64,000 bases of DNA from the sequence record NC_031047.1; one strand, given 5' to 3'. Positions 5,591 through 54,575 of the stretch are shown here, one piece after another (position 1 is the stretch's first letter; each line of letters starts with the position of its first letter). This stretch comes from Escherichia phage HY03. Both the position numbers and the translations under genes were made by a program. The notes under the pieces were generated by a model. It was not told the DNA's origin. It saw only the letters and a list, made by a program, of their open reading frames with translations, and searched no databases.

Positions 5591-5605
5591 TCTTTGACGA
5601 TTTAA

Positions 5606-5621
5606 GGGACCTTCGGGTCCC
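5606..5621 (+). terminator. stem-loop GGGACC-UUCG-GGUCCC after gene 23
   Basis: Perfect GC stem with UUCG-type loop followed by a T-rich run. Confidence 0.7.
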
Positions 5622-5638
5622 TTTAGTTGTTTTTATGG

Positions 5639-5646
5639 TATAAATA
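5639..5646 (+). promoter_or_regulatory. late promoter TATAAATA upstream of gene 24
   Basis: Exact TATAAATA 28 nt upstream of the gp24 ATG. Confidence 0.65.
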
Positions 5647-5673
5647 AATCATATAAACCAAAAGGAAAGCGCA

Positions 5674-6986: not shown

Positions 6987-7990
6987 TTAACTTACCAATT
7001 CAATCCAAGCCGGACGAAGTACATCTTGTACCATTTTAACTAATTCCTTTTTAACCAAAGAAGGATTATCTGCTTGAGTTAGAGTAATACCTTCACGAGA
7101 AGTTTCTTCCAAAATATCTTGAACAGTTAGTCCCATCACCTTTCCAAAATCCTTCGAACCAATTTCACCAATTTTAGAAATAACGTTATTTACTCGGTTC
7201 AGTGTAACGTAGCAAGCTAAAATTCCCACCAATTTGTTATCAGCTTCTGATAGTTCAACTTTAGCTTTAATAGGCTTATCAGACTTTTTCTTTTCACTAA
7301 ATTTGGAATTCTTGCATTTGATGGCTACACGATTTCCATTATGAAGCCAAGAAGGATAACAAGGTTTCAATACATATCCTTCAGCGGTAAATACTTCGCC
7401 TTTGGCTTCAGCTTTCCAAACACATTTGTTAGCGTCAACTAATCCAGCATGGTCTACCGTAAAATTATAATCCTGTACGACAGAATCTAAATCATTTGGC
7501 AATTTAATAAGTTCTTCAAATTTACCACGACCTAAAAGTGGAGCCATTTTAAATTTAAATGTATTACAGAATGATTCCATCATATAATCATCGACATAAG
7601 TCACATCACCACTTTCTGTAGTGACAATAATGTCAAATACATAAAAATCTTTACGCCATAATCGACATTCTTCTGAATGCCAGGTCCAGCGAATTCGCCA
7701 AAGACTTGATAAGATACAACCGCTGAGGTTTCCATAATATCTTGTACTGCTTTAATAGAATCTTCGTAATTCTTTAGAATAATTTCATACCCAAAGAAAT
7801 CTTCAGCAGGAAGAATCGGTCCAGTACGTTTAGCGCAAGTTACTTTATCACGCTCAATAATCAATGAGAAATTTGTGCCGTGAATCTTTTCACGAGCTAC
7901 CCACTCCCCACCAGTCAATCCCAAGCTATAAAGTTTTTCAATAAATTTAGAGTTGTAATGATTTTCAAGACTGCTATACTTTTTAAACAT
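6987..7990 (-). pseudogene. rnlB: RNA ligase 2 (Rnl2) split into two ORFs by a frameshift near 7653-7657
   Basis: N-terminal ORF 7601..7990 carries ligase motif I (REKIHGTN, Lys35); C-terminal ORF 6987..7604 continues in another frame starting at GTG; the switch maps to the GGCGT segment. Confidence 0.6.
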
Positions 7991-11065: not shown

Positions 11066-12574
11066 ATGGATATTAAAGTACATTTTCACGACTTCAGTCA
11101 TGTACGCATCGATTGTGAAGAGAGCACGTTCCACGAATTAAGAGATTTCTTTTCGTTTGAGGCCGATGGATATAGATTTAACCCTCGCTTCAGATATGGC
11201 AACTGGGATGGACGAATCCGTCTTTTAGATTATAATCGTCTTCTTCCATTCGGCTTAGTCGGGCAAATTAAAAAGTTCTGTGATAACTTTGGCTATAAAG
11301 CCTGGATTGACCCACAAATTAACGAAAAAGAAGAATTATCAAGAAAAGATTTTGATGAATGGCTTTCTAAATTAGAAATCTATTCAGGAAATAAAAGAAT
11401 TGAACCACACTGGTATCAAAAAGATGCAGTGTTCGAAGGATTAGTTAATCGTCGTAGAATTCTTAATCTTCCAACATCCGCTGGTAAATCGTTAATTCAA
11501 GCTTTGCTTGCGCGATATTATTTGGAAAATTATGAAGGTAAAATTCTTATCATTGTTCCAACAACTGCTCTAACAACTCAGATGGCTGATGACTTCGTTG
11601 ACTATCGTTTATTCAGTCATGCAATGATAAAGAAAATTGGTGGCGGAGCATCAAAAGATGATAAATATAAAAATGATGCACCAGTCGTTGTTGGTACATG
11701 GCAAACTGTAGTAAAACAACCGAAAGAATGGTTCTCACAGTTTGGAATGATGATGAATGATGAATGCCATCTTGCTACAGGAAAAAGTATTTCATCTATC
11801 ATATCAGGTTTAAATAACTGCATGTTCAAATTTGGTCTATCTGGTTCATTACGTGATGGCAAAGCCAATATCATGCAGTATGTTGGAATGTTTGGTGAAA
11901 TATTTAAGCCAGTAACGACTTCTAAGTTAATGGAAGATGGACAAGTAACTGAGCTAAAAATTAATAGTATTTTTCTTCGCTATCCCGATGAGTTCACTAC
12001 TAAATTAAAGGGAAAAACTTATCAAGAAGAAATAAAAATTATTACGGGGCTTAGTAAAAGAAATAAATGGATCGCTAAATTGGCTATTAAGCTTGCACAA
12101 AAAGATGAAAACGCTTTTGTCATGTTTAAACACGTATCGCACGGTAAAGCTATTTTCGATTTAATTAAAAATGAATACGATAAAGTTTATTACGTATCAG
12201 GGGAAGTTGATACCGAAACCCGCAACGTAATGAAAACCTTAGCTGAAAATGGTAAAGGAATAATTATAGTAGCTAGTTATGGTGTATTTTCTACTGGTAT
12301 TTCAGTTAAAAATCTGCATCACGTTGTTTTAGCGCACGGTGTTAAATCAAAAATCATTGTATTACAAACAATCGGTCGTGTATTACGTAAGCATGGTTCT
12401 AAGACAATAGCAACGGTCTGGGACCTCATTGATGACGCGGGCGTAGTTTCTAAATCAAAAACATCTTCTAAAAAATACTCGCATTTAAACTATCTTTTAA
12501 AACATGGACTTGATCGTATTCAGCGTTATGCTGATGAGAAGTTTAATTATGTGATGAAAGAGGTTAAACTTTGA
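11066..12574 (+). CDS. uvsW: UvsW RNA-DNA and DNA-DNA helicase
   Basis: 502-aa SF2 helicase (Walker A PTSAGKS, DECH box). Confidence 0.95.
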   Translation: MDIKVHFHDFSHVRIDCEESTFHELRDFFSFEADGYRFNPRFRYGNWDGRIRLLDYNRLLPFGLVGQIKKFCDNFGYKAWIDPQINEKEELSRKDFDEWLSKLEIYSGNKRIEPHWYQKDAVFEGLVNRRRILNLPTSAGKSLIQALLARYYLENYEGKILIIVPTTALTTQMADDFVDYRLFSHAMIKKIGGGASKDDKYKNDAPVVVGTWQTVVKQPKEWFSQFGMMMNDECHLATGKSISSIISGLNNCMFKFGLSGSLRDGKANIMQYVGMFGEIFKPVTTSKLMEDGQVTELKINSIFLRYPDEFTTKLKGKTYQEEIKIITGLSKRNKWIAKLAIKLAQKDENAFVMFKHVSHGKAIFDLIKNEYDKVYYVSGEVDTETRNVMKTLAENGKGIIIVASYGVFSTGISVKNLHHVVLAHGVKSKIIVLQTIGRVLRKHGSKTIATVWDLIDDAGVVSKSKTSSKKYSHLNYLLKHGLDRIQRYADEKFNYVMKEVKL

Positions 12575-13263
12575 ATTATAAATTAATATACGATAATTTA
12601 ATTAATAGAGCCCAGAATCGGGCTCGCCTTAATGGATACACTGAAACTCATCATATAATTCCTAGATGTATGGGCGGTACAGATGATAAGTGTAATTTGG
12701 TAGAACTAACAGCTGAAGAGCATTTTATAGCTCATAAACTTTTAGCTAAAATTCATCCAAACCATTACGGTATAATTAAAGCCGTTATATGTATGGGGAT
12801 GAATTCAAAAACTCATGAAAGACACGTTAATAAATCTTACGCCTGGGAACGTCGTAAAATGGCAGAACTTCAATCAGGTGAAGGTAATCCATTTTACGGA
12901 AAACACCATACGGAAGAACATAAACAATATATGTCAAAACTCATGAAAAATCGTCCAATTACGTGGGGAAGTAAAATTAGTAAAACTAAAAGAATGAACC
13001 CAACAAAATGGACTGAAGAAGCTAAAAGATTGCATTCTATCAATCAATCAGGTAAAAATAATGGCATGTATGGAAGGAAACATTCCGCTAAATCTATTCA
13101 GAAAATTAAAGATAACATGCCAGATAATTCAGGAGCTAATAACCCAGCTGCTAAACCTATAGAAGTAAATGGTGTTAAGTATAAATGCATGAAAGATGCT
13201 TCTAAAGCTACTGGATTATCAATGTACAAACTAAGAATACTTAGAAAAACAGTTAATTTATAA
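12571..13263 (+). CDS. HNH homing endonuclease, free-standing, with repeated Gly-rich DNA-binding modules
   Basis: HNH motif THHIIPRCMGG...NLVELTAEEH; TTG start overlapping uvsW stop with GAGG RBS; no ORF at this position in T4 as I recall it. Confidence 0.8.
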   Translation: MNYKLIYDNLINRAQNRARLNGYTETHHIIPRCMGGTDDKCNLVELTAEEHFIAHKLLAKIHPNHYGIIKAVICMGMNSKTHERHVNKSYAWERRKMAELQSGEGNPFYGKHHTEEHKQYMSKLMKNRPITWGSKISKTKRMNPTKWTEEAKRLHSINQSGKNNGMYGRKHSAKSIQKIKDNMPDNSGANNPAAKPIEVNGVKYKCMKDASKATGLSMYKLRILRKTVNL

Positions 13264-13277
13264 GGGCTTCGGCCCTT
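13262..13277 (+). terminator. stem-loop AAGGGC-UUCG-GCCCUU between the HNH gene and uvsW.1
   Basis: Perfect stem with UUCG tetraloop directly after the HNH stop. Confidence 0.5.
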
Positions 13278-13288
13278 TGGAGAAAAAG

Positions 13289-13519
13289 ATGTTACTAGAA
13301 TTTAAACAATTTCTTTATGAAGCTTCTATTGATGAATTTATGGGTAAAATTGCCTCTTGCCAAACATTAGAAGGTCTAGAAGAACTTGAAGCTTATTACA
13401 AGAAAAGAGTTAAAGAAACTGAATTAAAAGATACTGATGACATCTCTGTGAGAGATGCTTTGGCAGGAAAAAGAGCTGAATTAGAAGATTCAGACGATGA
13501 AGTAGAAGAAAGCTTTTAA
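13289..13519 (+). CDS. uvsW.1: UvsW.1-like small acidic protein
   Basis: 76 aa from ATG 13289 (ORF track begins at upstream TTG); GGAG RBS. Confidence 0.75.
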   Translation: MLLEFKQFLYEASIDEFMGKIASCQTLEGLEELEAYYKKRVKETELKDTDDISVRDALAGKRAELEDSDDEVEESF

Positions 13520-19827: not shown

Positions 19828-20922
19828 ATGGCAATTGTTAAAGAAATAACTGCTGATTTAATTAAAAAGTCTGGCGAGACAATTTCAGCTGGACAGAGTA
19901 CTAAATCAGAAGTAGGAACTAAAACATACACAGCCCAGTTTCCAACTGGGCGTGCTAGTGGGAATGACACTACAGGGGACTTCCAGGTAACAGATCTATA
20001 TAAGAATGGATTATTATTTACTGCATACAATATGTCATCTAGGGATTCTGGAAGTCTCAGAACGATGAGATCTAACTACTCTTCTTCATCTTCTAGTATT
20101 TTACGTACAGCCAGAAACACTATCAGTAATACAGTATCAAAACTGTCAAATGGATTAATATCAGATAATAATTCAGGAACAATAAGTAAAGCCCCTGTTG
20201 CAAATATTCTTTTACCAAGATCTAAATCTGATGTTGATACATCATCACATAGATTTAATGATGTTCAAGAAAGTCTTATCAGCAGAGGCGGAGGTACTGC
20301 TACTGGTGTGCTAAGTAATATTGCTTCAACTGCAGTATTTGGGGCACTGGAAAGTATAACACAAGGTATAATGGCTGATAATAATGAGCAGATTTATACT
20401 ACAGCCAGAAGTATGTATGGTGGTGCTGAGAATAGAACTAAAGTGTTTACATGGGATTTGACTCCACGTTCAACAGAAGATTTAATGGCTATTATTAATA
20501 TCTATCAGTATTTTAACTATTTTTCTTATGGTGAAACGGGCAAATCTCAATATGCTGCTGAAATAAAGGGGTATTTAGATGATTGGTATCGTTCTACGTT
20601 AATTGAACCTTTATCTCCGGAAGACGCAGCTAAAAATAAAACACTATTTGAGAAAATGACATCGAGTTTAACTAACGTTTTAGTAGTTTCAAACCCGACA
20701 ATTTGGATGGTGAAAAACTTTGGTGCAACATCTAAGTTTGATGGAAAAACTGAAATATTTGGTCCATGCCAAATACAGAGCATCAGATTTGATAAAACAC
20801 CTAATGGTAACTTTAACGGATTAGCTATTGCTCCAAACCTCCCTAGTACATTTACTCTTGAGATTACTATGAGAGAAATTATCACGTTAAACCGTGCTTC
20901 TTTATATGCGGGGACTTTTTAA
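19828..20922 (+). CDS. 48: baseplate tail-tube junction protein gp48
   Basis: 364-aa ORF in conserved position. Confidence 0.9.
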   Translation: MAIVKEITADLIKKSGETISAGQSTKSEVGTKTYTAQFPTGRASGNDTTGDFQVTDLYKNGLLFTAYNMSSRDSGSLRTMRSNYSSSSSSILRTARNTISNTVSKLSNGLISDNNSGTISKAPVANILLPRSKSDVDTSSHRFNDVQESLISRGGGTATGVLSNIASTAVFGALESITQGIMADNNEQIYTTARSMYGGAENRTKVFTWDLTPRSTEDLMAIINIYQYFNYFSYGETGKSQYAAEIKGYLDDWYRSTLIEPLSPEDAAKNKTLFEKMTSSLTNVLVVSNPTIWMVKNFGATSKFDGKTEIFGPCQIQSIRFDKTPNGNFNGLAIAPNLPSTFTLEITMREIITLNRASLYAGTF

Positions 20923-21845
20923 TGTATTCTTTAGAGGAATTTAATAATCAAGCAATAAACGCAGATTTCCAACGTAATAATATGTTTAGCTGCGTTTTTG
21001 CGACAACTCCATCAACTAAAAGCTCTTCGTTGATAAGTTCAATTAGCAACTTTTCTTATAATAACTTGGGCTTAAATTCAGATTGGTTAGGATTGACTCA
21101 AGACGATATTAATCAGGGAATTACTACGCTAATTACTGCTGGCACACAAAAACTGATAAGAAAATCAGGGGTTAGTAAATATCTTATTGGTGCCATGAGT
21201 CAACGTACAGTTCAAAGCTTATTAGGCTCATTTACAGTTGGTACATATTTAATTGACTTCTTTAACATGGCATATAACTCATCTGGATTGATGATATACT
21301 CCGTAAAAATGCCAGAGAATAGATTATCCTATGAAACTGACTGGAACTATAATTCTCCTAATATTCGCATAACCGGAAGAGAATTAGACCCTTTGGTTAT
21401 TTCATTTAGAATGGATTCAGAAGCTTGTAACTATCGTGCAATGCAAGACTGGGTTAACTCCGTTCAAGACCCAGTAACTGGATTACGCGCTTTGCCGCAA
21501 GATGTCGAGGCAGATATTCAGGTTAATCTTCATTCTCGCAATGGATTGCCTCATACTGCGGTGATGTTCACCGGATGCATTCCAATATCAGTGAGCGCTC
21601 CTGAGTTATCATATGATGGAGATAACCAAATAACTACATTTGATGTTACTTTTGCGTATAGAGTGATGCAGGCTGGAGCGGTTGATAGGCAAGCTGCGCT
21701 TGAATGGCTTGAATCTGCTGCTATAAATGGTATTCAAAGCGTTCTCGGAAATAGTGGAGGTGTTACTGGACTATCTAATTCGCTTTCACGACTTAGTAGA
21801 CTAGGAGGAACCTCAGGAAGCATTTCAAATATTAGTATACTATGA
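20922..21845 (+). CDS. 54: baseplate tail-tube initiator gp54
   Basis: 307-aa ORF in conserved position after gp48. Confidence 0.9.
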   Translation: MYSLEEFNNQAINADFQRNNMFSCVFATTPSTKSSSLISSISNFSYNNLGLNSDWLGLTQDDINQGITTLITAGTQKLIRKSGVSKYLIGAMSQRTVQSLLGSFTVGTYLIDFFNMAYNSSGLMIYSVKMPENRLSYETDWNYNSPNIRITGRELDPLVISFRMDSEACNYRAMQDWVNSVQDPVTGLRALPQDVEADIQVNLHSRNGLPHTAVMFTGCIPISVSAPELSYDGDNQITTFDVTFAYRVMQAGAVDRQAALEWLESAAINGIQSVLGNSGGVTGLSNSLSRLSRLGGTSGSISNISIL

Positions 21846-21894
21846 CAGGGATTGTCAATTCGCAGAGTAAAATATTAGGAGCAATATAACAACG

Positions 21895-21911
21895 GGGACC
21901 TTTCGGTCCCC
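21895..21911. terminator. bidirectional stem-loop GGGGACC-UUUC-GGUCCCC between gene 54 and a convergent gene
   Basis: Perfect 7-bp GC stem. Confidence 0.7.
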
Positions 21912-21917
21912 ATATTT

Positions 21918-22208
21918 TTATTTGCGGAATGAAATGAAAGCAGAAACTGAAGCAACTAAACTGTCTTCAATATAAACTTCAATTTTTACCGGAGCTTCTG
22001 ACTCAAATTTACCTGTTACTACACCCTGAAAAATACTTTCAGTCTGTTCTGGCTTTGAAAAATTTTCAGAAGGAAAAATTCCGAACTTTTTATCTGTTCC
22101 AAAAATTTTAATAAATTCATCGTAAACCGCTTCGTTAAAAGCATTATCAGCAGGAATAACGCCTTCAACTACAAGTTCTTGACCTAAAAAGCGTAAAGAA
22201 GATTTCAT
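21918..22208 (-). CDS. hypothetical early protein
   Basis: 96-aa ORF with GAGGA RBS and its own minus-strand early promoter. Confidence 0.6.
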   Translation of the reverse strand: MKSSLRFLGQELVVEGVIPADNAFNEAVYDEFIKIFGTDKKFGIFPSENFSKPEQTESIFQGVVTGKFESEAPVKIEVYIEDSLVASVSAFISFRK

Positions 22209-22239
22209 TTTGTGTTCCTCATGTTATGTCAGTAAGACT

Positions 22240-22269
22240 ACTATAACACAACACGAGGGACTTGTAAAC
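22240..22269 (-). promoter_or_regulatory. T4-type early promoter on the minus strand
   Basis: Minus strand reads GTTTAC, 18 nt, TATAGT upstream of the 96-aa gene. Confidence 0.6.
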
Positions 22270-22591
22270 TACATTTTGAACTTTTTAGTACGCGTAATAG
22301 GCATGCGTCGATTTTATACTGTTTCATTGTTTGAAGAGCAGTATCAAAAACAGCATTAATGACACCAATTGGATTTCCACCCAAGTTTTTAAGCTTAACT
22401 AATGATAGTTTCTAGTTTCTCATTAACACCTATCATTACGATATGCATCATTTTGTCGCCTGGTTTAACGTTTTATCTGTATCACCGCCAGAGGTGTATG
22501 TACAAAATCTAAATCCAGGAAGCACGCTTTCTTCGCCGGCTTGAATAGCAAAAATTTGTGGTATTTTATGCTTAGGATTTAAGTTAACAAC

Positions 22592-22607
22592 CGGCGCCGA
22601 AGCGCCG
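22592..22607 (-). other. GC stem-loop with UUCG loop 3' of the 214-aa ORF
   Basis: CGGCGC-CGAA-GCGCCG; no U-tract on either strand. Confidence 0.4.
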
Positions 22608-22636
22608 TCAAATAATTATGTAATAAGTTCCATGAT

Positions 22637-23281
22637 TTATCCTTGAACGAACTTGTAAGGCATGTTTGCAATATCTATGCAAGACGCAATAATTCCAAGA
22701 GATGATTCTACTTTCTGTTTAACATTTGATGAAACAAATGATGCAAAGTCAACTCTGTCTTCTATTTCAATATCACCTGTCATTGCAACTACTTCACCAG
22801 TTTCCATTAGACGGTCACCGTCATAAATTACTGATTCGGTGAGTTCTTCCGTAGTCATAACTTCAGCTTGAATGAGTTTTGTATTATTAAATGTTGTTCC
22901 GTCATTATTAGAAGCATCAGTTATTTTATTAACTTTGACCATCAATCCACGTGGTAGAATAACTTCAGCTTCTGTTGCTATTCCGAGACTTCCTGGATAT
23001 ACAACATTAACTTTATGAGCTCCATCAATTGCCCATCCTATTTGAACTTTAACGTATTCAGGATTTTCTTTATACGCTCTTATTTCGTTTGGATTAATAG
23101 TTATTCCTTCTTCATTTTTATCAACTGTCAATTCATTACGAGCTTCTGGTTCTAAAAGACCGATACCAGCATGTGTAATTCCAAAACGTCCAAAAATGAT
23201 AGGAGTTAAAGAAGTAGATACAAAATTTCTGAAATAGAACACTTTATTTTTAACTAATGCTTCGTATATAGGAGCAGTCAA
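22637..23281 (-). CDS. hypothetical protein, possibly a 5'-truncated gene remnant at the synteny breakpoint
   Basis: 214-aa ORF whose only start is TTG without RBS; in-frame stop 6 codons upstream; abuts the divergent 116-aa gene. Confidence 0.45.
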   Translation of the reverse strand: MTAPIYEALVKNKVFYFRNFVSTSLTPIIFGRFGITHAGIGLLEPEARNELTVDKNEEGITINPNEIRAYKENPEYVKVQIGWAIDGAHKVNVVYPGSLGIATEAEVILPRGLMVKVNKITDASNNDGTTFNNTKLIQAEVMTTEELTESVIYDGDRLMETGEVVAMTGDIEIEDRVDFASFVSSNVKQKVESSLGIIASCIDIANMPYKFVQG

Positions 23282-23282
23282 T

Positions 23283-23633
23283 ATGAAAGGTAATGTTTAT
23301 TTAGTAGTTCATGATTTAACATTCTATTTTAATCATAATGATACTGTTATTTCTGAACGTGTAATTAATTTGCTTTATCAGCATGCAGATTATGTTTATG
23401 TCGAAAACGAATATGGTCATTGGCAATTTCTCAAAAATCGTTCATTTGGTTTAGATGGTTACGAATATTTTGATCGTAAAGACCTTTTAGATACAATTCC
23501 GTTATCTACACAATATCAAAATCATAAGTCTTTACATAAATGCCGGCTAATTCGAAATGCTGAATCCGCGTATGAAGCAATTGATTTATGGCGTAAACGC
23601 CGTGAACAGATTGATGCTTTAAAAGAATATTAA
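23283..23633 (+). CDS. hypothetical protein
   Basis: 116-aa ORF with AGGAG RBS, immediately upstream of the structured RNA locus. Confidence 0.65.
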   Translation: MKGNVYLVVHDLTFYFNHNDTVISERVINLLYQHADYVYVENEYGHWQFLKNRSFGLDGYEYFDRKDLLDTIPLSTQYQNHKSLHKCRLIRNAESAYEAIDLWRKRREQIDALKEY

Positions 23634-23639
23634 GAAACC

Positions 23640-23940
23640 GGGTCGCTACCGGTAAGTCGTCGGACTGATGTTCCCTGGAGTATAGTTTCCTCCCACAGTT
23701 TTACTGTGTTCTGGCTCTTTACTATTACAGCAGAAACGGCGCACCGAATTATCGATTCGAGGAAATATCTTTGCCATAAGCCGAGTAGCGTTTTTGACGG
23801 AACGTTCGGATATGGTCGAGATATGGCCTTTTAAAAATATTGAGTAGCGTCAACTACTTAATAACCGGGTTCAAATCCCGGCGTTTCGTACAAACACTTG
23901 CCTTAGCAGGTGGAACCCCGACAAGGTTGCCGCAAGGCTT
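23640..23940 (+). ncRNA. structured non-coding RNA locus (tRNA-cluster remnant or stable small RNA); contains a tRNA-like T-arm
   Basis: 300 nt without ORF, GC-richer than flanks, several hairpins, canonical T-arm CCGGG-TTCAAAT-CCCGG at 23865-23881, GNRA-capped helices. Confidence 0.4.
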
Positions 23941-23969
23941 AGCCCTGACCGAAAGGTTGGGGCTTTTTA
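23941..23969 (+). terminator. intrinsic terminator: 10-bp stem, GAAA loop, U5 tail
   Basis: AGCCCTGACC-GAAA-GGTTGGGGCT followed by TTTTT. Confidence 0.8.
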
Positions 23970-24043
23970 GTTTGAATCACTCAGAGAATGCTGTTACGGA
24001 TAATAAATAATTAATAACCAATAAATTATTTCAAGGATTTTAA

Positions 24044-24607
24044 ATGAAAACCTATGCCGAATTTTTAACTGAAGCAGCAAAATTACCATCTGAAGCAGAT
24101 CTTACTAAAGTATTCTTCCACTTGGACCCAAAAGACCGGGGCGATTTTCTTAAGTGGAAAGCTAAAGCTATTGAAATGTATAACATCGATAACAGTTCTT
24201 TTACGATGAGCCAAGAAAATAGTTTCAATAAAGCATTTTTCAAAATTTCTAAGAAATTGGCATCTGGCGCTCAGGTTTCTAAATCTGCATTAGCTACTCC
24301 TGAACGTGCACCTGTTAAAATTTCTAAGAATATGTTTGACACTAAAAAATATGTCAATGCTTTGAATAAAGCTCTTGATGCATTGGATGATGCAAAGAAG
24401 GCAGCCCGCGATCTTCAAGACGTGTATACCGATTTTGATCGTAAAACTAAAGGTTCTATTTCAAATAGCGAACGCAATAGTGTAAGTGTTTATTCTGATA
24501 GCCTTGATGTTCTTGGCGATGCATATACTGAAATTAAAAATCGTATTAACACCGCATCTAAGCTAAAAGCTGCTGCAGAAGCTATAATAACTAAACTAGG
24601 TAAATAA
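24044..24607 (+). CDS. internal protein-like capsid-targeted protein (N-terminal CTS MKTYAEFLTEA)
   Basis: 187-aa ORF beginning with the T4 IP capsid-targeting sequence, predicted gp21 cleavage after LTEA. Confidence 0.8.
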   Translation: MKTYAEFLTEAAKLPSEADLTKVFFHLDPKDRGDFLKWKAKAIEMYNIDNSSFTMSQENSFNKAFFKISKKLASGAQVSKSALATPERAPVKISKNMFDTKKYVNALNKALDALDDAKKAARDLQDVYTDFDRKTKGSISNSERNSVSVYSDSLDVLGDAYTEIKNRINTASKLKAAAEAIITKLGK

Positions 24608-28246: not shown

Positions 28247-28777
<531 letters not shown>

Positions 28778-35772: not shown

Positions 35773-35973
35773 ATGTTAACACGTGAACAGTTTGAAAAAA
35801 TCATTAAATTAGCACGTGATGTTGAAATAGATTCATACCAATTGGCAGTTGAGCATTGTGAAGGATATTCATACGACGGTATAGAAGCAGCTAAAAAGGA
35901 TTTGGATAAATCTAAAGCTAAGTTAGTTCAATATCTTGAAATGATTAGGTGGAATAATGAAAACTGTAGTTAA
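35773..35973 (+). CDS. hypothetical small protein
   Basis: 66-aa ORF. Confidence 0.55.
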   Translation: MLTREQFEKIIKLARDVEIDSYQLAVEHCEGYSYDGIEAAKKDLDKSKAKLVQYLEMIRWNNENCS

Positions 35974-41972: not shown

Positions 41973-42899
41973 ATGACTCGTAAACATTATATTGATTATT
42001 TTGACAGTCTTATTACTAAACACCGTAATTATCAGATCGGACGCAGAGCAGTAATCAATAATATTCTTCGTGATTTCCTTCAATATGTTGGCCAGGAAAA
42101 TCATATCTGTAAAGATACTCAAAACGCTTATTCTCATTCGTTAGGCAATTTGCTTCAATGGTTTAAACGTTCTCGTCTGTTATCTTCTACTGTAGCTAGT
42201 GATAACATTAAAAACTTTATGAAGCCGAGCTTCATTAAATCTGAGACATCTATAACCGATTTGGTTGAATTTACTATTGTTAACGATGTTAAAAAGACCC
42301 ATTTGGCTGATTGGTTATCTACCATTCCCGAAACTAAATTTGCTGATAAATTCGCTTGTCAATTCAATGACCAAGTGAATATGCTTTTTAAGCATGCTCG
42401 TAAACTATTTACCGCGGGCGATGACCGTACAAATACAGTTCATGTTAAGGATTGGGTTATTGCTGATGAAGTAACACGCAAGCCAGGTGGTTCATCAGTA
42501 TTAATTAATATCCAGGTTCCTTATTATTACTCACATAATCTCGGCACCATGACAGCTAGAGAAATTAATAAGCACAACAAAATTATTCGTTCGTTGTCTT
42601 ATAAACTCTGCACGATGGTGGAGATGATGGACGTAGTGGAAATGTATGACGAAACCGAAGATAATGGTTCAATGCTGTACAGTTCACGCATTCTAATTAA
42701 ACTGAAGAACCCTAATACATATAAGCAAGTTGTAAAAGAACCTAAAGCAGAAAAGGCTGATAATCTGAGTGAAGAACGTGAATATCTCAATGCTCGTTTG
42801 ATTGAAGTTGAAGCCCAAATTGCAGAACACACCAAATTGTTAAAAGCTCTTAATGCAAAAGCAAATGGTTTACGCAATGCTATTGAGGTATTGAAATGA
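41973..42899 (+). CDS. hypothetical protein with C-terminal coiled coil
   Basis: 308 aa from ATG with GAGGAG RBS. Confidence 0.6.
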   Translation: MTRKHYIDYFDSLITKHRNYQIGRRAVINNILRDFLQYVGQENHICKDTQNAYSHSLGNLLQWFKRSRLLSSTVASDNIKNFMKPSFIKSETSITDLVEFTIVNDVKKTHLADWLSTIPETKFADKFACQFNDQVNMLFKHARKLFTAGDDRTNTVHVKDWVIADEVTRKPGGSSVLINIQVPYYYSHNLGTMTAREINKHNKIIRSLSYKLCTMVEMMDVVEMYDETEDNGSMLYSSRILIKLKNPNTYKQVVKEPKAEKADNLSEEREYLNARLIEVEAQIAEHTKLLKALNAKANGLRNAIEVLK

Positions 42900-46747: not shown

Positions 46748-48039
46748 CTGAATATAATGATGAAGTAAATACACTTTTCAGCTCTAATGGACAGACTCCT
46801 TTTGTAACAATTACATTTGGTACGGGAACTGACTGGACTGAACGAATGATTCAGAAAGCAATTCTGAAAAATCGTATTAAAGGTCTTGGTCGTGATGGGA
46901 TAACTCCTATTTTCCCTAAGCTTGTTATGTTTGTTGAAGAAGGTGTTAATCTTTACAAAGACGATCCGAACTATGATATTAAGCAGCTTGCTCTAGAGTG
47001 CGCAAGCAAAAGAATGTATCCTGATATTATTTCAGCTAAGAACAATAAAGCTATCACTGGTTCATCTATTCCTGTTTCTCCGATGGGATGCCGTAGTTTC
47101 TTGAGTGTATGGAAAGATTCGACTGGTAATGAAATTCTTGATGGACGTAATAATCTTGGTGTTGTAACACTGAATCTTCCTCGTATCGCATTAGATTCTT
47201 ATATTGGAACACAGTTCAATGAACAGAAATTTGTTGAATTGTTCAATGAACGAATGGATTTGTGTTTTGAAGCTTTGATGTGTAGAATTAGTTCCTTAAA
47301 AGGAGTTAAAGCTACTGTTGCTCCTATTCTTTACCAAGAAGGTGCATTCGGGGTTCGTCTTAAACCTGATGACGACATAATTGAGTTATTTAAAAACGGT
47401 AGAAGTTCAGTGTCCCTAGGATACATTGGTATTCATGAATTGAATATTCTTGTCGGTCGTGATATTGGACAGGAAATTTTAACTAAAATGAATGCCCATC
47501 TTAAACAGTGGACTGAAAGAACTGGATTTGCTTTTAGTTTATATTCGACTCCTGCTGAAAACCTTTGTTATCGCTTCTGTAAACTTGATACAGAAAAATA
47601 TGGAAGCGTAAAAGATGTTACCGATAAAGGTTGGTACACTAATAGTTTCCATGTTTCAGTAGAAGAAAATATTACTCCGTTTGAAAAGATTTCTCGTGAA
47701 GCGCCATATCATTTCATTGCGACAGGTGGTCACATTTCTTATGTTGAACTTCCTGATATGAAAAATAACTTAAAAGGTCTTGAGGCCGTATGGGATTATG
47801 CTGCACAGCATTTAGATTATTTTGGTGTTAATATGCCAGTAGATAAATGTTTTACATGTGGAAGTACCCATGAAATGACTCCTACTGAAAACGGATTTGT
47901 TTGTTCTATTTGTGGAGAAACTGATCCTAAAAAGATGAACACCATAAGAAGAACATGCGGATATCTTGGAACTCCTAGCGTTGTCCCATGGAATTTAGGT
48001 AAAATGAAAGAAATGGTAAAACGAGTAAAACATGCATAG
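46748..48039 (+). CDS. nrdD: anaerobic ribonucleotide reductase NrdD, exon 2
   Basis: Continues exon 1 frame; C-terminal Cys cluster (CFTCGS...CSICG). Confidence 0.7.
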
Positions 48040-48862
48040 GTATTATATAATTTATAAAATAACAAATATAATTAATTCAAAGGAATATATCGGTGCGCAT
48101 AGCACCGATAACATAAATGACGGTTATATGGGGTCAGGAACATTGATTCGTGCCGCTTTATTAAAATATGGTAGAAAAAATTTTAATAAAGAAATTTTAC
48201 ATGTTTTTGATAATGAAAAACAAATGTATGATAAAGAAGCTGAACTCGTAACCGAAGAGTATTGTCTAAAAGAAAATACATATAATATTAAACCTGGTGG
48301 CAAAGGTGGAACTGCCTATGAACAGACGCTTGAACATCGCCGCAAAAATAGCTTAGCAAATAAAGGTAAAAAGAGAACAGCAGAAACTAAAATAGCTATT
48401 TCAAATGCTTTAAAGAAATATAAACGTACGTCAGAACATCAAGCAAACTTAAATAAAGCTGTAAGCATAGCCATGAAGCGAAAAGATGTTAGAAGTAAAT
48501 TAACTGGAGCGCGTTCTGAGAAAGATAAATTATCTATATCAAATGGTGTTAAAAAATATTACAATTCTTTGAGCGAAGAAGAACGTGAACTTCATCGCAA
48601 GCGAATTATTGAAGGTAAAAAGAATTCTCCCATGACATTGGAATCCAGACAAAAGCTTTCAAAAGCTTTAAAAGGACTTCAAGTTGGTTCAAAAAATCCA
48701 ATGTATGGAAAAATTTCTCCAACTAGCAAAACCGTTTCAGTTGACGGTATTAAATATGATTCAATTAAAAAGTGCTCAAATGCCATAAAAGTTTCTAGAC
48801 ATCTTATACTAAAACGCTGTAATTCTACTGATGAAGCTTGGAAAAATTGGATATTATTATGA
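48032..48862 (+). CDS. free-standing GIY-YIG homing endonuclease (Seg-like) between nrdD and nrdG
   Basis: N-terminal YIIYKITNIINSKEYIGAHS motif plus repeated Gly-rich DNA-binding modules; 276 aa. Confidence 0.8.
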   Translation: MHRYYIIYKITNIINSKEYIGAHSTDNINDGYMGSGTLIRAALLKYGRKNFNKEILHVFDNEKQMYDKEAELVTEEYCLKENTYNIKPGGKGGTAYEQTLEHRRKNSLANKGKKRTAETKIAISNALKKYKRTSEHQANLNKAVSIAMKRKDVRSKLTGARSEKDKLSISNGVKKYYNSLSEEERELHRKRIIEGKKNSPMTLESRQKLSKALKGLQVGSKNPMYGKISPTSKTVSVDGIKYDSIKKCSNAIKVSRHLILKRCNSTDEAWKNWILL

Positions 48863-53320: not shown

Positions 53321-53372
53321 TATTGCTTTATAAATTTTTTGATAAAATAAACCAAAACAAAGAGGATATTAA

Positions 53373-54575
53373 ATGAAAGTATGCATTTTTCTGGCTCGGG
53401 GTCTTGAAGGTTGTGGTGTAACTAAATTTTCTCTTGAGCAGCGTGATTGGTTTATTAAAAATGGTCATGAAGTAACTTTGGTTTATGCTAAAGATAAATC
53501 ATTTACTCGTACAAGTTCTCATGACCACAAATCATTTTCAATTCCAGTTATTTTAGCTAAAGAATACGATAAAGCACTTAAACTGATTAATGATTGTGAT
53601 ATTCTAATTATTAATTCTGTTCCTGCTACTTCCGTTCAAGAAGCCACGATTAATAACTATAAAAAACTTTTAGATAATATTAAACCTTCTATTCGTGTTG
53701 TAGTTTATCAGCATGATCATTCTGTTCTTTCTTTGCGTCGAAATTTGGGATTAGAAGAAACTGTTCGTCGAGCTGATGTTATTTTTAGTCATTCTGATAA
53801 TGGCGATTTTAATAAAGTTCTGATGAAAGAATGGTATCCAGAAACTGTTTCTCTGTTTGATGATATTGAAGAAGCACCAACAGTATATAATTTTCAGCCT
53901 CCTATGGATATTGCGAAGGTTCGGTCAACTTATTGGAAAGATGTTTCTGAAATTAACATGAACATCAACCGTTGGATTGGTCGTACGACTACATGGAAAG
54001 GTTTTTATCAGATGTTTGATTTTCACGAAAAATTCTTAAAACCTGCTGGTAAATCCACTGTAATGGAAGGTCTTGAACGTTCCCCTGCTTTTATTGCAAT
54101 TAAGGAAAAAGGTATTCCGTATGAATATTATGGTAATCGTGAGATTGATAAAATGAATCTCACGCCGAATCAACCGGCACAAATCCTAGATTGTTATATT
54201 AATAGTGAAATGCTTGAACGAATGAGTAAATCTGGCTTTGGATATCAGTTGAGTAAACTTAACCAGAAATACTTACAACGCTCACTCGAATATACTCATC
54301 TTGAATTAGGTGCTTGCGGTACAATTCCTGTTTTCTGGAAATCAACAGGTGATAATTTAAAATTCCGTGTTGATAATACTCCTTTGACCTCACATGATAG
54401 CGGTATCATTTGGTTTGATGAAAATGACATGGAATCAACATTCGAGCGTATTAAAGAACTGTCATCTGACCGAGCTCTTTATGACCGTGAGCGAGAAAAA
54501 GCATATGAATTTTTGTATCAGCATCAAGATTCAAGCTTCTGCTTTAAAGAACAGTTTGACATTATTACAAAATAA
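53373..54575 (+). CDS. agt: DNA alpha-glucosyltransferase
   Basis: 400-aa ORF matching T4 alpha-gt in length and position next to gene 47. Confidence 0.85.
   Translation: MKVCIFLARGLEGCGVTKFSLEQRDWFIKNGHEVTLVYAKDKSFTRTSSHDHKSFSIPVILAKEYDKALKLINDCDILIINSVPATSVQEATINNYKKLLDNIKPSIRVVVYQHDHSVLSLRRNLGLEETVRRADVIFSHSDNGDFNKVLMKEWYPETVSLFDDIEEAPTVYNFQPPMDIAKVRSTYWKDVSEINMNINRWIGRTTTWKGFYQMFDFHEKFLKPAGKSTVMEGLERSPAFIAIKEKGIPYEYYGNREIDKMNLTPNQPAQILDCYINSEMLERMSKSGFGYQLSKLNQKYLQRSLEYTHLELGACGTIPVFWKSTGDNLKFRVDNTPLTSHDSGIIWFDENDMESTFERIKELSSDRALYDREREKAYEFLYQHQDSSFCFKEQFDIITK

Follow-up and report, generated by a model that had tools for sequence, protein, structure and literature searches.

We analysed a stretch of 64,000 nucleotides (nt) from Escherichia phage HY03 (NC_031047.1), referred to here as the window, around a junction at which an arm carrying the late structural genes 20 to 54 meets an arm carrying the early genes from e to 43. 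Judged from its sequence, the window belongs to a Tequatrovirus (T4-like phage), and about 760 phage records match the neighbourhood of the junction at 80–99% identity. Positions 1–23280 follow the order of T4 from gene 20 to gene 54, and then alt.-3, a remnant equivalent to alt.-2/alt.-1 and the 3' end of alt. Positions 23280–64000 correspond to reversed T4 sequence, from the boundary between tRNA-Arg and rnaD to gene 43. At the meeting point lie a minus-strand open reading frame (ORF) of 214 amino acids (aa) and a divergent gene encoding a protein of 116 aa.

The first-pass annotation of this interval had pointed out that genes 20–54 and genes e–43 are co-oriented here and lie on opposite strands in T4. 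A whole-window blastn dot-plot against T4 (20–128 kb) bore this out and revealed a single flip. Window positions 1–23048 align with T4 100918–123862 on the plus strand, and positions 23633–64000 align with T4 71168–27200 on the minus strand. The junction is the sole orientation change across the window; the arms are otherwise collinear with T4, and the remaining discontinuities are plain insertions or deletions, mostly involving the presence or absence of homing-endonuclease genes. The two arms lie on opposite strands in every relative in which both were located, for example JEP6 and F26. On these alignments, the junction is one end of an inversion of ~53 kb relative to T4 (T4 ~71.17 to ~124.1 kb). 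The flipped block contains the tRNA cluster, genes 57, 1, 3, 2, 4, 53 and 5 through 54, alt.-3 and the 3' third of alt. Compared with the T4 region (NC_000866, 121.7–127.2 kb), where gene 54 is followed by alt.-3, alt.-2, alt.-1, alt, alt.1 and gene 30, the window is unchanged in gene order and strand from gene 54 as far as the 3' end of alt, but there alt is broken at codon 484 and inverted sequence from the distal side of tRNA-Arg replaces the 5' part of alt, alt.1 and gene 30. The first-pass annotation had described a late module fused to an early one. A join of distant sequences is indeed present, but a simple fusion of modules does not account for it, since the partner sequence is the spacer between tRNA-Arg and the 116-aa gene and the rearrangement amounts to an inversion of ~53 kb.

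The late/early junction, placed until now only within an interval of the window, could be mapped to the base (23280/23281). Homology of the left arm to relatives stops at 23280 and that of the right arm begins at 23280, so that T4 coordinates of roughly 124.1 kb and 71.17 kb are joined. In a three-way alignment of the window with alt of Salmonella phage SG1 and the tRNA-Arg region of G4498, the window follows the alt antisense strand through GGAGCAGTCA and then switches to ATATGAAAGG. The join hits alt at codon Met484; seen from the other arm, it lies ~15 nt past tRNA-Arg of the parental sequence and 2 nt ahead of the 116-aa gene's ATG. It splits the ADP-ribosyltransferase domain of Alt between the Arg motif and the STS motif. 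This alignment revealed no extended similarity between the parental sequences around the join, where the overlap is 1 nt; the join is therefore non-homologous and not the product of inverted repeats. It is free of Ns and padding.

Three other ways of making such a join were considered and set aside. Inversion through recombination between inverted repeats is rejected at this end because of the 1-nt overlap. Site-specific inversion of the Gin/Cin/Hin type, which would call for an invertase gene and paired crossover sites at both ends of the segment, seems unlikely judging from this end, where alt.-3, the alt remnant and the 116-aa gene flank the join and nothing resembles such a system; the other end of the segment lies beyond the window. 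For an engineered restriction-site join there is no evidence, as the sequence reads CAATATG and not the NdeI site CATATG.

Table 1. Features flanking the junction in the window
Feature	Coordinates	Strand	Basis
Gene 54 (baseplate-tail tube initiator), last late gene of the left arm	20922..21845	+	tblastn with T4 gp54, 96.7% identity, stop-free; collinear with relatives
Bidirectional hairpin terminator between gene 54 and alt.-3	21894..21911		Terminator-like on both strands: GGGGACCTTTCGGTCCCC followed by a T run
alt.-3 homologue (96 aa, DUF5498)	21918..22208	-	Pfam PF17602, E = 5e-64; 99% identical to T4 alt.-3
Degenerate copy of the alt 5' part, equivalent to T4 alt.-2/alt.-1	22280..22633	-	tblastn with T4 Alt residues 1–117: 51% identity, 6 stops
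3' remnant of alt (codons 484–697 and stop)	22637..23280	-	Nucleotide match to SG1 alt, Alt alignment, Pfam, phrog_802
Breakpoint, non-homologous join with one shared base (A at 23280)	23280..23281		Three-way alignment, match limits, dot-plot
116-aa accessory gene (phrog_3355, unknown function)	23283..23633	+	PHROG match, G4498 annotation
Homologues of T4 stable RNAs rnaD/rnaC (species 2 and 1)	23633..23971	+	89.8% identity to T4 71168–70827

The 214-aa ORF (22637–23281, minus strand) begins with TTG, is preceded by an in-frame minus-strand stop at 23297–23299 and abuts the divergent 116-aa gene at 23283, all of which had been noted at first pass and can be read in the sequence. The remark that the ORF has no ATG start and no ribosome-binding site also holds: beyond the TTG, the next in-frame starts are GTG at codon 14 and TTG at codon 51, ATG does not appear until codon 114, and the 20 nt upstream of the first TTG (AATAAACATTACCTTTCATA) are devoid of a Shine-Dalgarno sequence. 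The truncated gene had been guessed to be alt, and it is alt. The ORF equals residues 484–697 of the 697-aa Alt of SG1 and aligns to residues 482–682 of T4 Alt; it thus matches part of a longer protein and not a full-length protein of its own size. At the nucleotide level it is identical to SG1 alt at 644 of 645 positions, and the lone mismatch is the first base of the first codon, which is ATG (Met484) in SG1 and TTG here. The TTG was created by the join, at which the ATG of Met484 lost its A.

The remnant passes the gathering score of the Pfam ADP-ribosyltransferase profile while covering only positions 102–195 of 196. Full-length Alt covers positions 1–195, with the domain at residues 374–614 of T4 Alt and 378–627 of SG1 Alt. 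The ORF also matches phrog_802 (E = 8e-76) over profile positions 480–674 of 674. The break lies 4 residues after the Arg motif, between GITVYRAQS and MTAP, such that the VYRAQ motif is lost and the STS and E-x-E (EAE) motifs are kept. Set beside Alt, the packaged RNA polymerase ADP-ribosyltransferase of T-even phages (PF03496/phrog_802), the ORF is 100% identical in amino acid sequence to SG1 Alt 485–697 and retains STS and E-x-E, but it lacks expression signals and the N-terminal 483 residues, among them the Arg motif and the rest of the fold's first half. The N-terminal region of Alt directs packaging of the protein into the head. By descent the ORF belongs to the Alt family; by function it does not, having only two of the three parts of the R - S-T-S - E-x-E motif. 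Exact look-ups of the 214-, 201- and 101-aa truncated alt products and of gp54 returned none on record. We conclude that the ORF is a dead remnant of alt, because it has no credible promoter, no ribosome-binding site and half a catalytic domain, and its N-terminal 483 residues are gone. The idea that it might be a small ADP-ribosyltransferase of ModA/ModB size, judged against the description of that size class, was set aside in view of the half domain, the join-made TTG and the lack of a Shine-Dalgarno sequence.

By a small margin we favour a real inversion of the phage genome with two breaks, sealed by non-homologous end joining very recently in evolutionary terms, and give this very nearly an even chance. 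One break would have occurred just 3' of tRNA-Arg, in a region prone to SegB-type double-strand breaks, and the other inside the dispensable alt, at codon Met484. Non-homologous joining of the ends would then have flipped the block of ~53 kb, and the phage would be alt-null yet viable. The reciprocal junction would connect tRNA-Arg to the alt 5' part and would be situated to the left of the window, ~30 kb outside it. It is predicted to read tRNA-Arg ... GAGGAAA joined to TACTTTGAGC ... alt 5' part or, written longer, tRNA-Arg ... AAGTGAGGAAA joined to TACTTTGAGCAC ... alt 5' part, alt.1, gene 30. The fuller version of this reading is that HY03 may be a viable, natural, alt-null Tequatrovirus with an inverted 53-kb block (the tRNA cluster and late genes 57A through 54) in which a break of the homing-endonuclease type beside tRNA-Arg was joined non-homologously to a break in alt; this we hold more tentatively, as somewhat less than an even bet.

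Both breakpoints fall in dispensable or harmless DNA, and the inversion is expected to be tolerated because alt is dispensable, gene 30 is untouched, the alt.-3 promoter is kept and the tested essential genes are largely intact. Alt is known to be dispensable in the laboratory, and gene 30 lies upstream of alt in the direction of transcription. Among 37 T4 proteins tested, including essential ones, 33 are full-length and stop-free in the window. The exceptions are alt (cut by the join), rnlB (frameshifted), gene 67 (alignment limited to residues 1–50 of 80) and gene 54 (13 residues shorter than its T4 counterpart but with the length of SG1 gene 54). The 116-aa gene keeps a usable Shine-Dalgarno sequence: everything upstream of its position -2 is replaced in the window, and an AGGAG (23270–23274), 8 nt before its ATG, is donated by the alt antisense strand. 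Only 1.0% (5-mer) to 3.1% (any 4–5-mer) of the possible alt breakpoints would yield such a Shine-Dalgarno sequence. The phages SG1, JEP6, F26 and VEc20 are close relatives to the left and to the right of the join alike, consistent with a single genome.

The right break lies ~30 nt from the tRNA-Arg T-psi-C motif GGTTAGAATCC in the parental sequence, which has one mismatch to the core recognition sequence of SegB. SegB, a GIY-YIG homing endonuclease, recognises GGTTCRANTCC and cleaves T2L tRNA-Arg among other tRNA genes (PMC2330249), and SegB breaks cause structural rearrangements in T6 and T4 (PMC13096335). The rearrangements on record are tandem amplifications that arose through homologous or microhomology-based recombination; they are not inversions (PMC13096335). 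No segB gene was found within the window. In some metagenomic relatives, a GIY-YIG (SegB-like) gene of ~235 aa ends ~95 nt upstream of the 116-aa gene (L024, 688–1395; L026, 2–715). Its placement matches the segB - tRNA-Arg arrangement of T4 and puts a homing endonuclease beside the right breakpoint in part of the population.

The junction was also sought in other genomes. A 601-nt probe centred on the join matched 433 phage records with one or both halves in megablast searches, and none of these records spans the join, no more than half of the probe being matched at a single place; the probe was likewise unmatched by megablast in complete E. coli assemblies and plasmids. No relative collinear with the window across the join was found.

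Several observations weigh against an inversion in the phage itself. A junction 24-mer was absent from viral, metagenome and genome contig collections by exact scan, and the predicted reciprocal junction, with a gap of 0–6 nt allowed, was absent from the same three kinds of collection. Exact native contexts, used as positive controls, occurred in only 2 and 4 viral contigs, which makes the negative from the viral collection a weak one. The native neighbourhood was present in all 15 public contigs listed with an identical 116-aa or 187-aa protein. The alt break has no SegB-like motif, the best candidate having two mismatches and lying 80 nt away. A search of the literature for Tequatrovirus inversions found the word only in its laboratory uses, and we know of no large inversion within the genus. 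The zero decay of the alt remnant fits a very recent event, but it fits an artefact equally. Finally, rnlB (RNA ligase 2; minus strand, ORF region 6990–7990) is split into two frames by a private 1-nt deletion at 7640–7655, outside a homopolymer (GGCG-TAAAG versus TGTGATAAAG in T4). At least 99% identity to a 161-nt stretch of rnlB was found in 38 relatives, and the 12 of them listed match over 162 nt at 99.4% with one difference, indicating that they are without the deletion. Either a pseudogenising mutation private to this phage or an error in the consensus would account for the deletion.

These points bear directly on the possibility of an assembly or record artefact, to which we assign slightly less than an even chance. 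A circularly permuted genome may have been recovered in at least two pieces, with ends in alt and by tRNA-Arg, and one piece flipped; or a chimeric long read or an amplification chimera may have been included. The phage would then have the native arrangement and an intact alt. This would explain a junction that is unique among hundreds of relatives and absent from all the collections searched, a join devoid of homology such as end-to-end concatenation would give, and an alt remnant identical to intact alt save for the junction base; the frameshifting deletion in rnlB points the same way. One contig followed by the reverse complement of another gives exactly one internal junction, with the second hidden at the record ends. 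Fragmentary Tequatrovirus records (111–155 kb) are common among the matches, and the neighbourhood often breaks assemblies. However, a de Bruijn assembler cannot join sequences without a shared k-mer (~21 nt or more), and with an overlap of only 1 nt a k-mer-graph chimera is excluded. There is also no padding at the join, the sequence is otherwise of high quality with the tested essential genes intact, both breaks are harmless, the good Shine-Dalgarno sequence downstream would be a 1–3% coincidence, and the contig ends of relatives fall beyond the 116-aa gene instead of at the spacer. Inverted chimeric joins known from assembly, scaffolding and amplification likewise connect distant inverted loci with 0–1 nt of overlap and find no support in relatives, but here Ns and a shared k-mer are lacking, the quality is high and the breakpoints are harmless. 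The first-pass annotation had offered a recombination junction or a chimeric assembly as alternatives; the truncated alt at the junction is confirmed, and between an inversion and a flipped contig the evidence is about equally divided.

Two further explanations fare less well. It is improbable that the window is a chimera of two co-occurring T4-like phages, with one arm from each joined in a co-assembly. The closest relatives do differ by arm, being AV121, KFS-EC3 and T6 on the left and ELT1, IME537 and JB75 on the right, where the first 4 kb are closest to G4498 (99.5%), but T-even genomes are mosaic and different nearest neighbours for different segments are normal. We rate a two-phage chimera low because the sequence next to the join is that of SG1 on either side (644 of 645 nt on the left, 301 of 301 nt on the right); JEP6, F26 and VEc20 rank high on both sides as well, no gene content is common to the two arms, nothing points positively to two genomes, and this kind of chimera too would have to form without a shared k-mer at the join. 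More improbable still is that some T4-like lineage normally has, and conserves, this arrangement, with the 214-aa ORF being a small ADP-ribosyltransferase gene in its own right. Such a gene would be consistent with a frame open for 214 codons, about the size of small phage ADP-ribosyltransferases, and with the score above the Pfam gathering level. Yet the arrangement occurs in no relative examined, the ORF covers only half of the Pfam profile (102–195 of 196) without the Arg motif, its nucleotides are identical to the 3' end of the 697-aa alt gene, its sole upstream start is the join-made TTG without a Shine-Dalgarno sequence, and no gene with this product or the 201- or 101-aa alternatives is on record.

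If the two-break inversion is real, T-even genome architecture would tolerate the flipping of one third of the chromosome, and in nature alt would be dispensable, as would the association of the tRNA cluster with the 116-aa gene and rnaD/rnaC. Blunt end joining would operate in these phages, possibly seeded by homing-endonuclease breaks. Genes 20–54 would be read in the same direction as genes e through 43, providing a natural test of the role of module orientation in T4 development. To our knowledge, this would be the first large inversion in an otherwise rigidly syntenic genus. If the junction is an artefact, the orientation of the record has to be checked at 23280/23281, and the 214-aa 'ADP-ribosyltransferase' does not merit annotation as a gene. 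Neither outcome involves a new molecular system.

On the right side of the join, the 116-aa gene lies in relatives 18 nt after tRNA-Arg, the last of a ten-tRNA cluster (G4498). Among the matches listed, the identical 116-aa protein is in this native context, downstream of trna.2-4 genes, in 10 of 10 contigs. Of these (L007–L016), six end 0.3–1.2 kb downstream of the gene, and three more near-complete metagenomic contigs (166–168 kb) start 6.5–7.8 kb downstream of it; the variable region between the tRNA genes and e appears to be a frequent assembly break point. T4 has no 116-aa gene, and its rnaD and rnaC follow tRNA-Arg directly. In T4 a tRNA operon precedes rnaD and rnaC; in the window the homologues are detached from it and, if the arrangement is real, the 116-aa gene and the e.x genes would likewise be deprived of the tRNA cluster found upstream in relatives. 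The rnaD/rnaC region contains a tRNA-like T-arm motif without mismatch at 23868 (GGTTCAAATCC) and, at 23941–23964, a hairpin resembling a terminator. ARAGORN found no tRNA anywhere in the window, and an Rfam scan returned no family match, including over the rnaD/rnaC region. In relatives such as G4498, two short hypothetical coding sequences are annotated in this stretch; they are probably spurious. A 187-aa gene (phrog_2280, unknown function; 24044–24607, plus strand) flanks rnaD/rnaC together with the 116-aa gene, and both genes are missing from the T4 locus. We conclude that the locus is a hypervariable spot, because in other relatives the 187-aa gene is swapped for a 157-aa gene or for nothing.

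The left side retains the features expected between gene 54 and alt. The minus-strand early gene with its own promoter, noticed at first pass, is alt.-3 (DUF5498), and a promoter scan located a sigma-70-like promoter (TTTACA-17-TATAGT, extended TG, 10 of 12 matches) at 22268–22240 on the minus strand. According to the T4 record, alt.-1/alt.-2 arose through an old duplication of the beginning of alt; their degenerate equivalent lies upstream of alt.-3 here. On the plus strand, between the terminator and position 23283, there are only weak sigma-70-like matches, and the interval from 21.0 to 25.5 kb contains no TATAAATA late promoter. Two TATAAATA late-promoter motifs, at 28249 and 28262, closely precede gene e.

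Relative to T4, the window is without segD (5601–5662), mobD with mobD.1 and mobD.2 (35947–35966), nrdC.4 (41976–41992) and mobB (53357–53382), and the mobC position (48014–48851) is occupied by unrelated sequence. Such presence or absence of homing-endonuclease genes is the usual variation among T-even phages. A 230-aa ORF with an HNH motif (THHIIPRCMGG...NLVELTAEEHFIAH) lies at 12571–13263 on the plus strand, between uvsW (11066–12574) and a uvsW.1-like ORF (13277–13519), at a position where T4 has no insert (T4 ~114175). It is probably a free-standing homing endonuclease.

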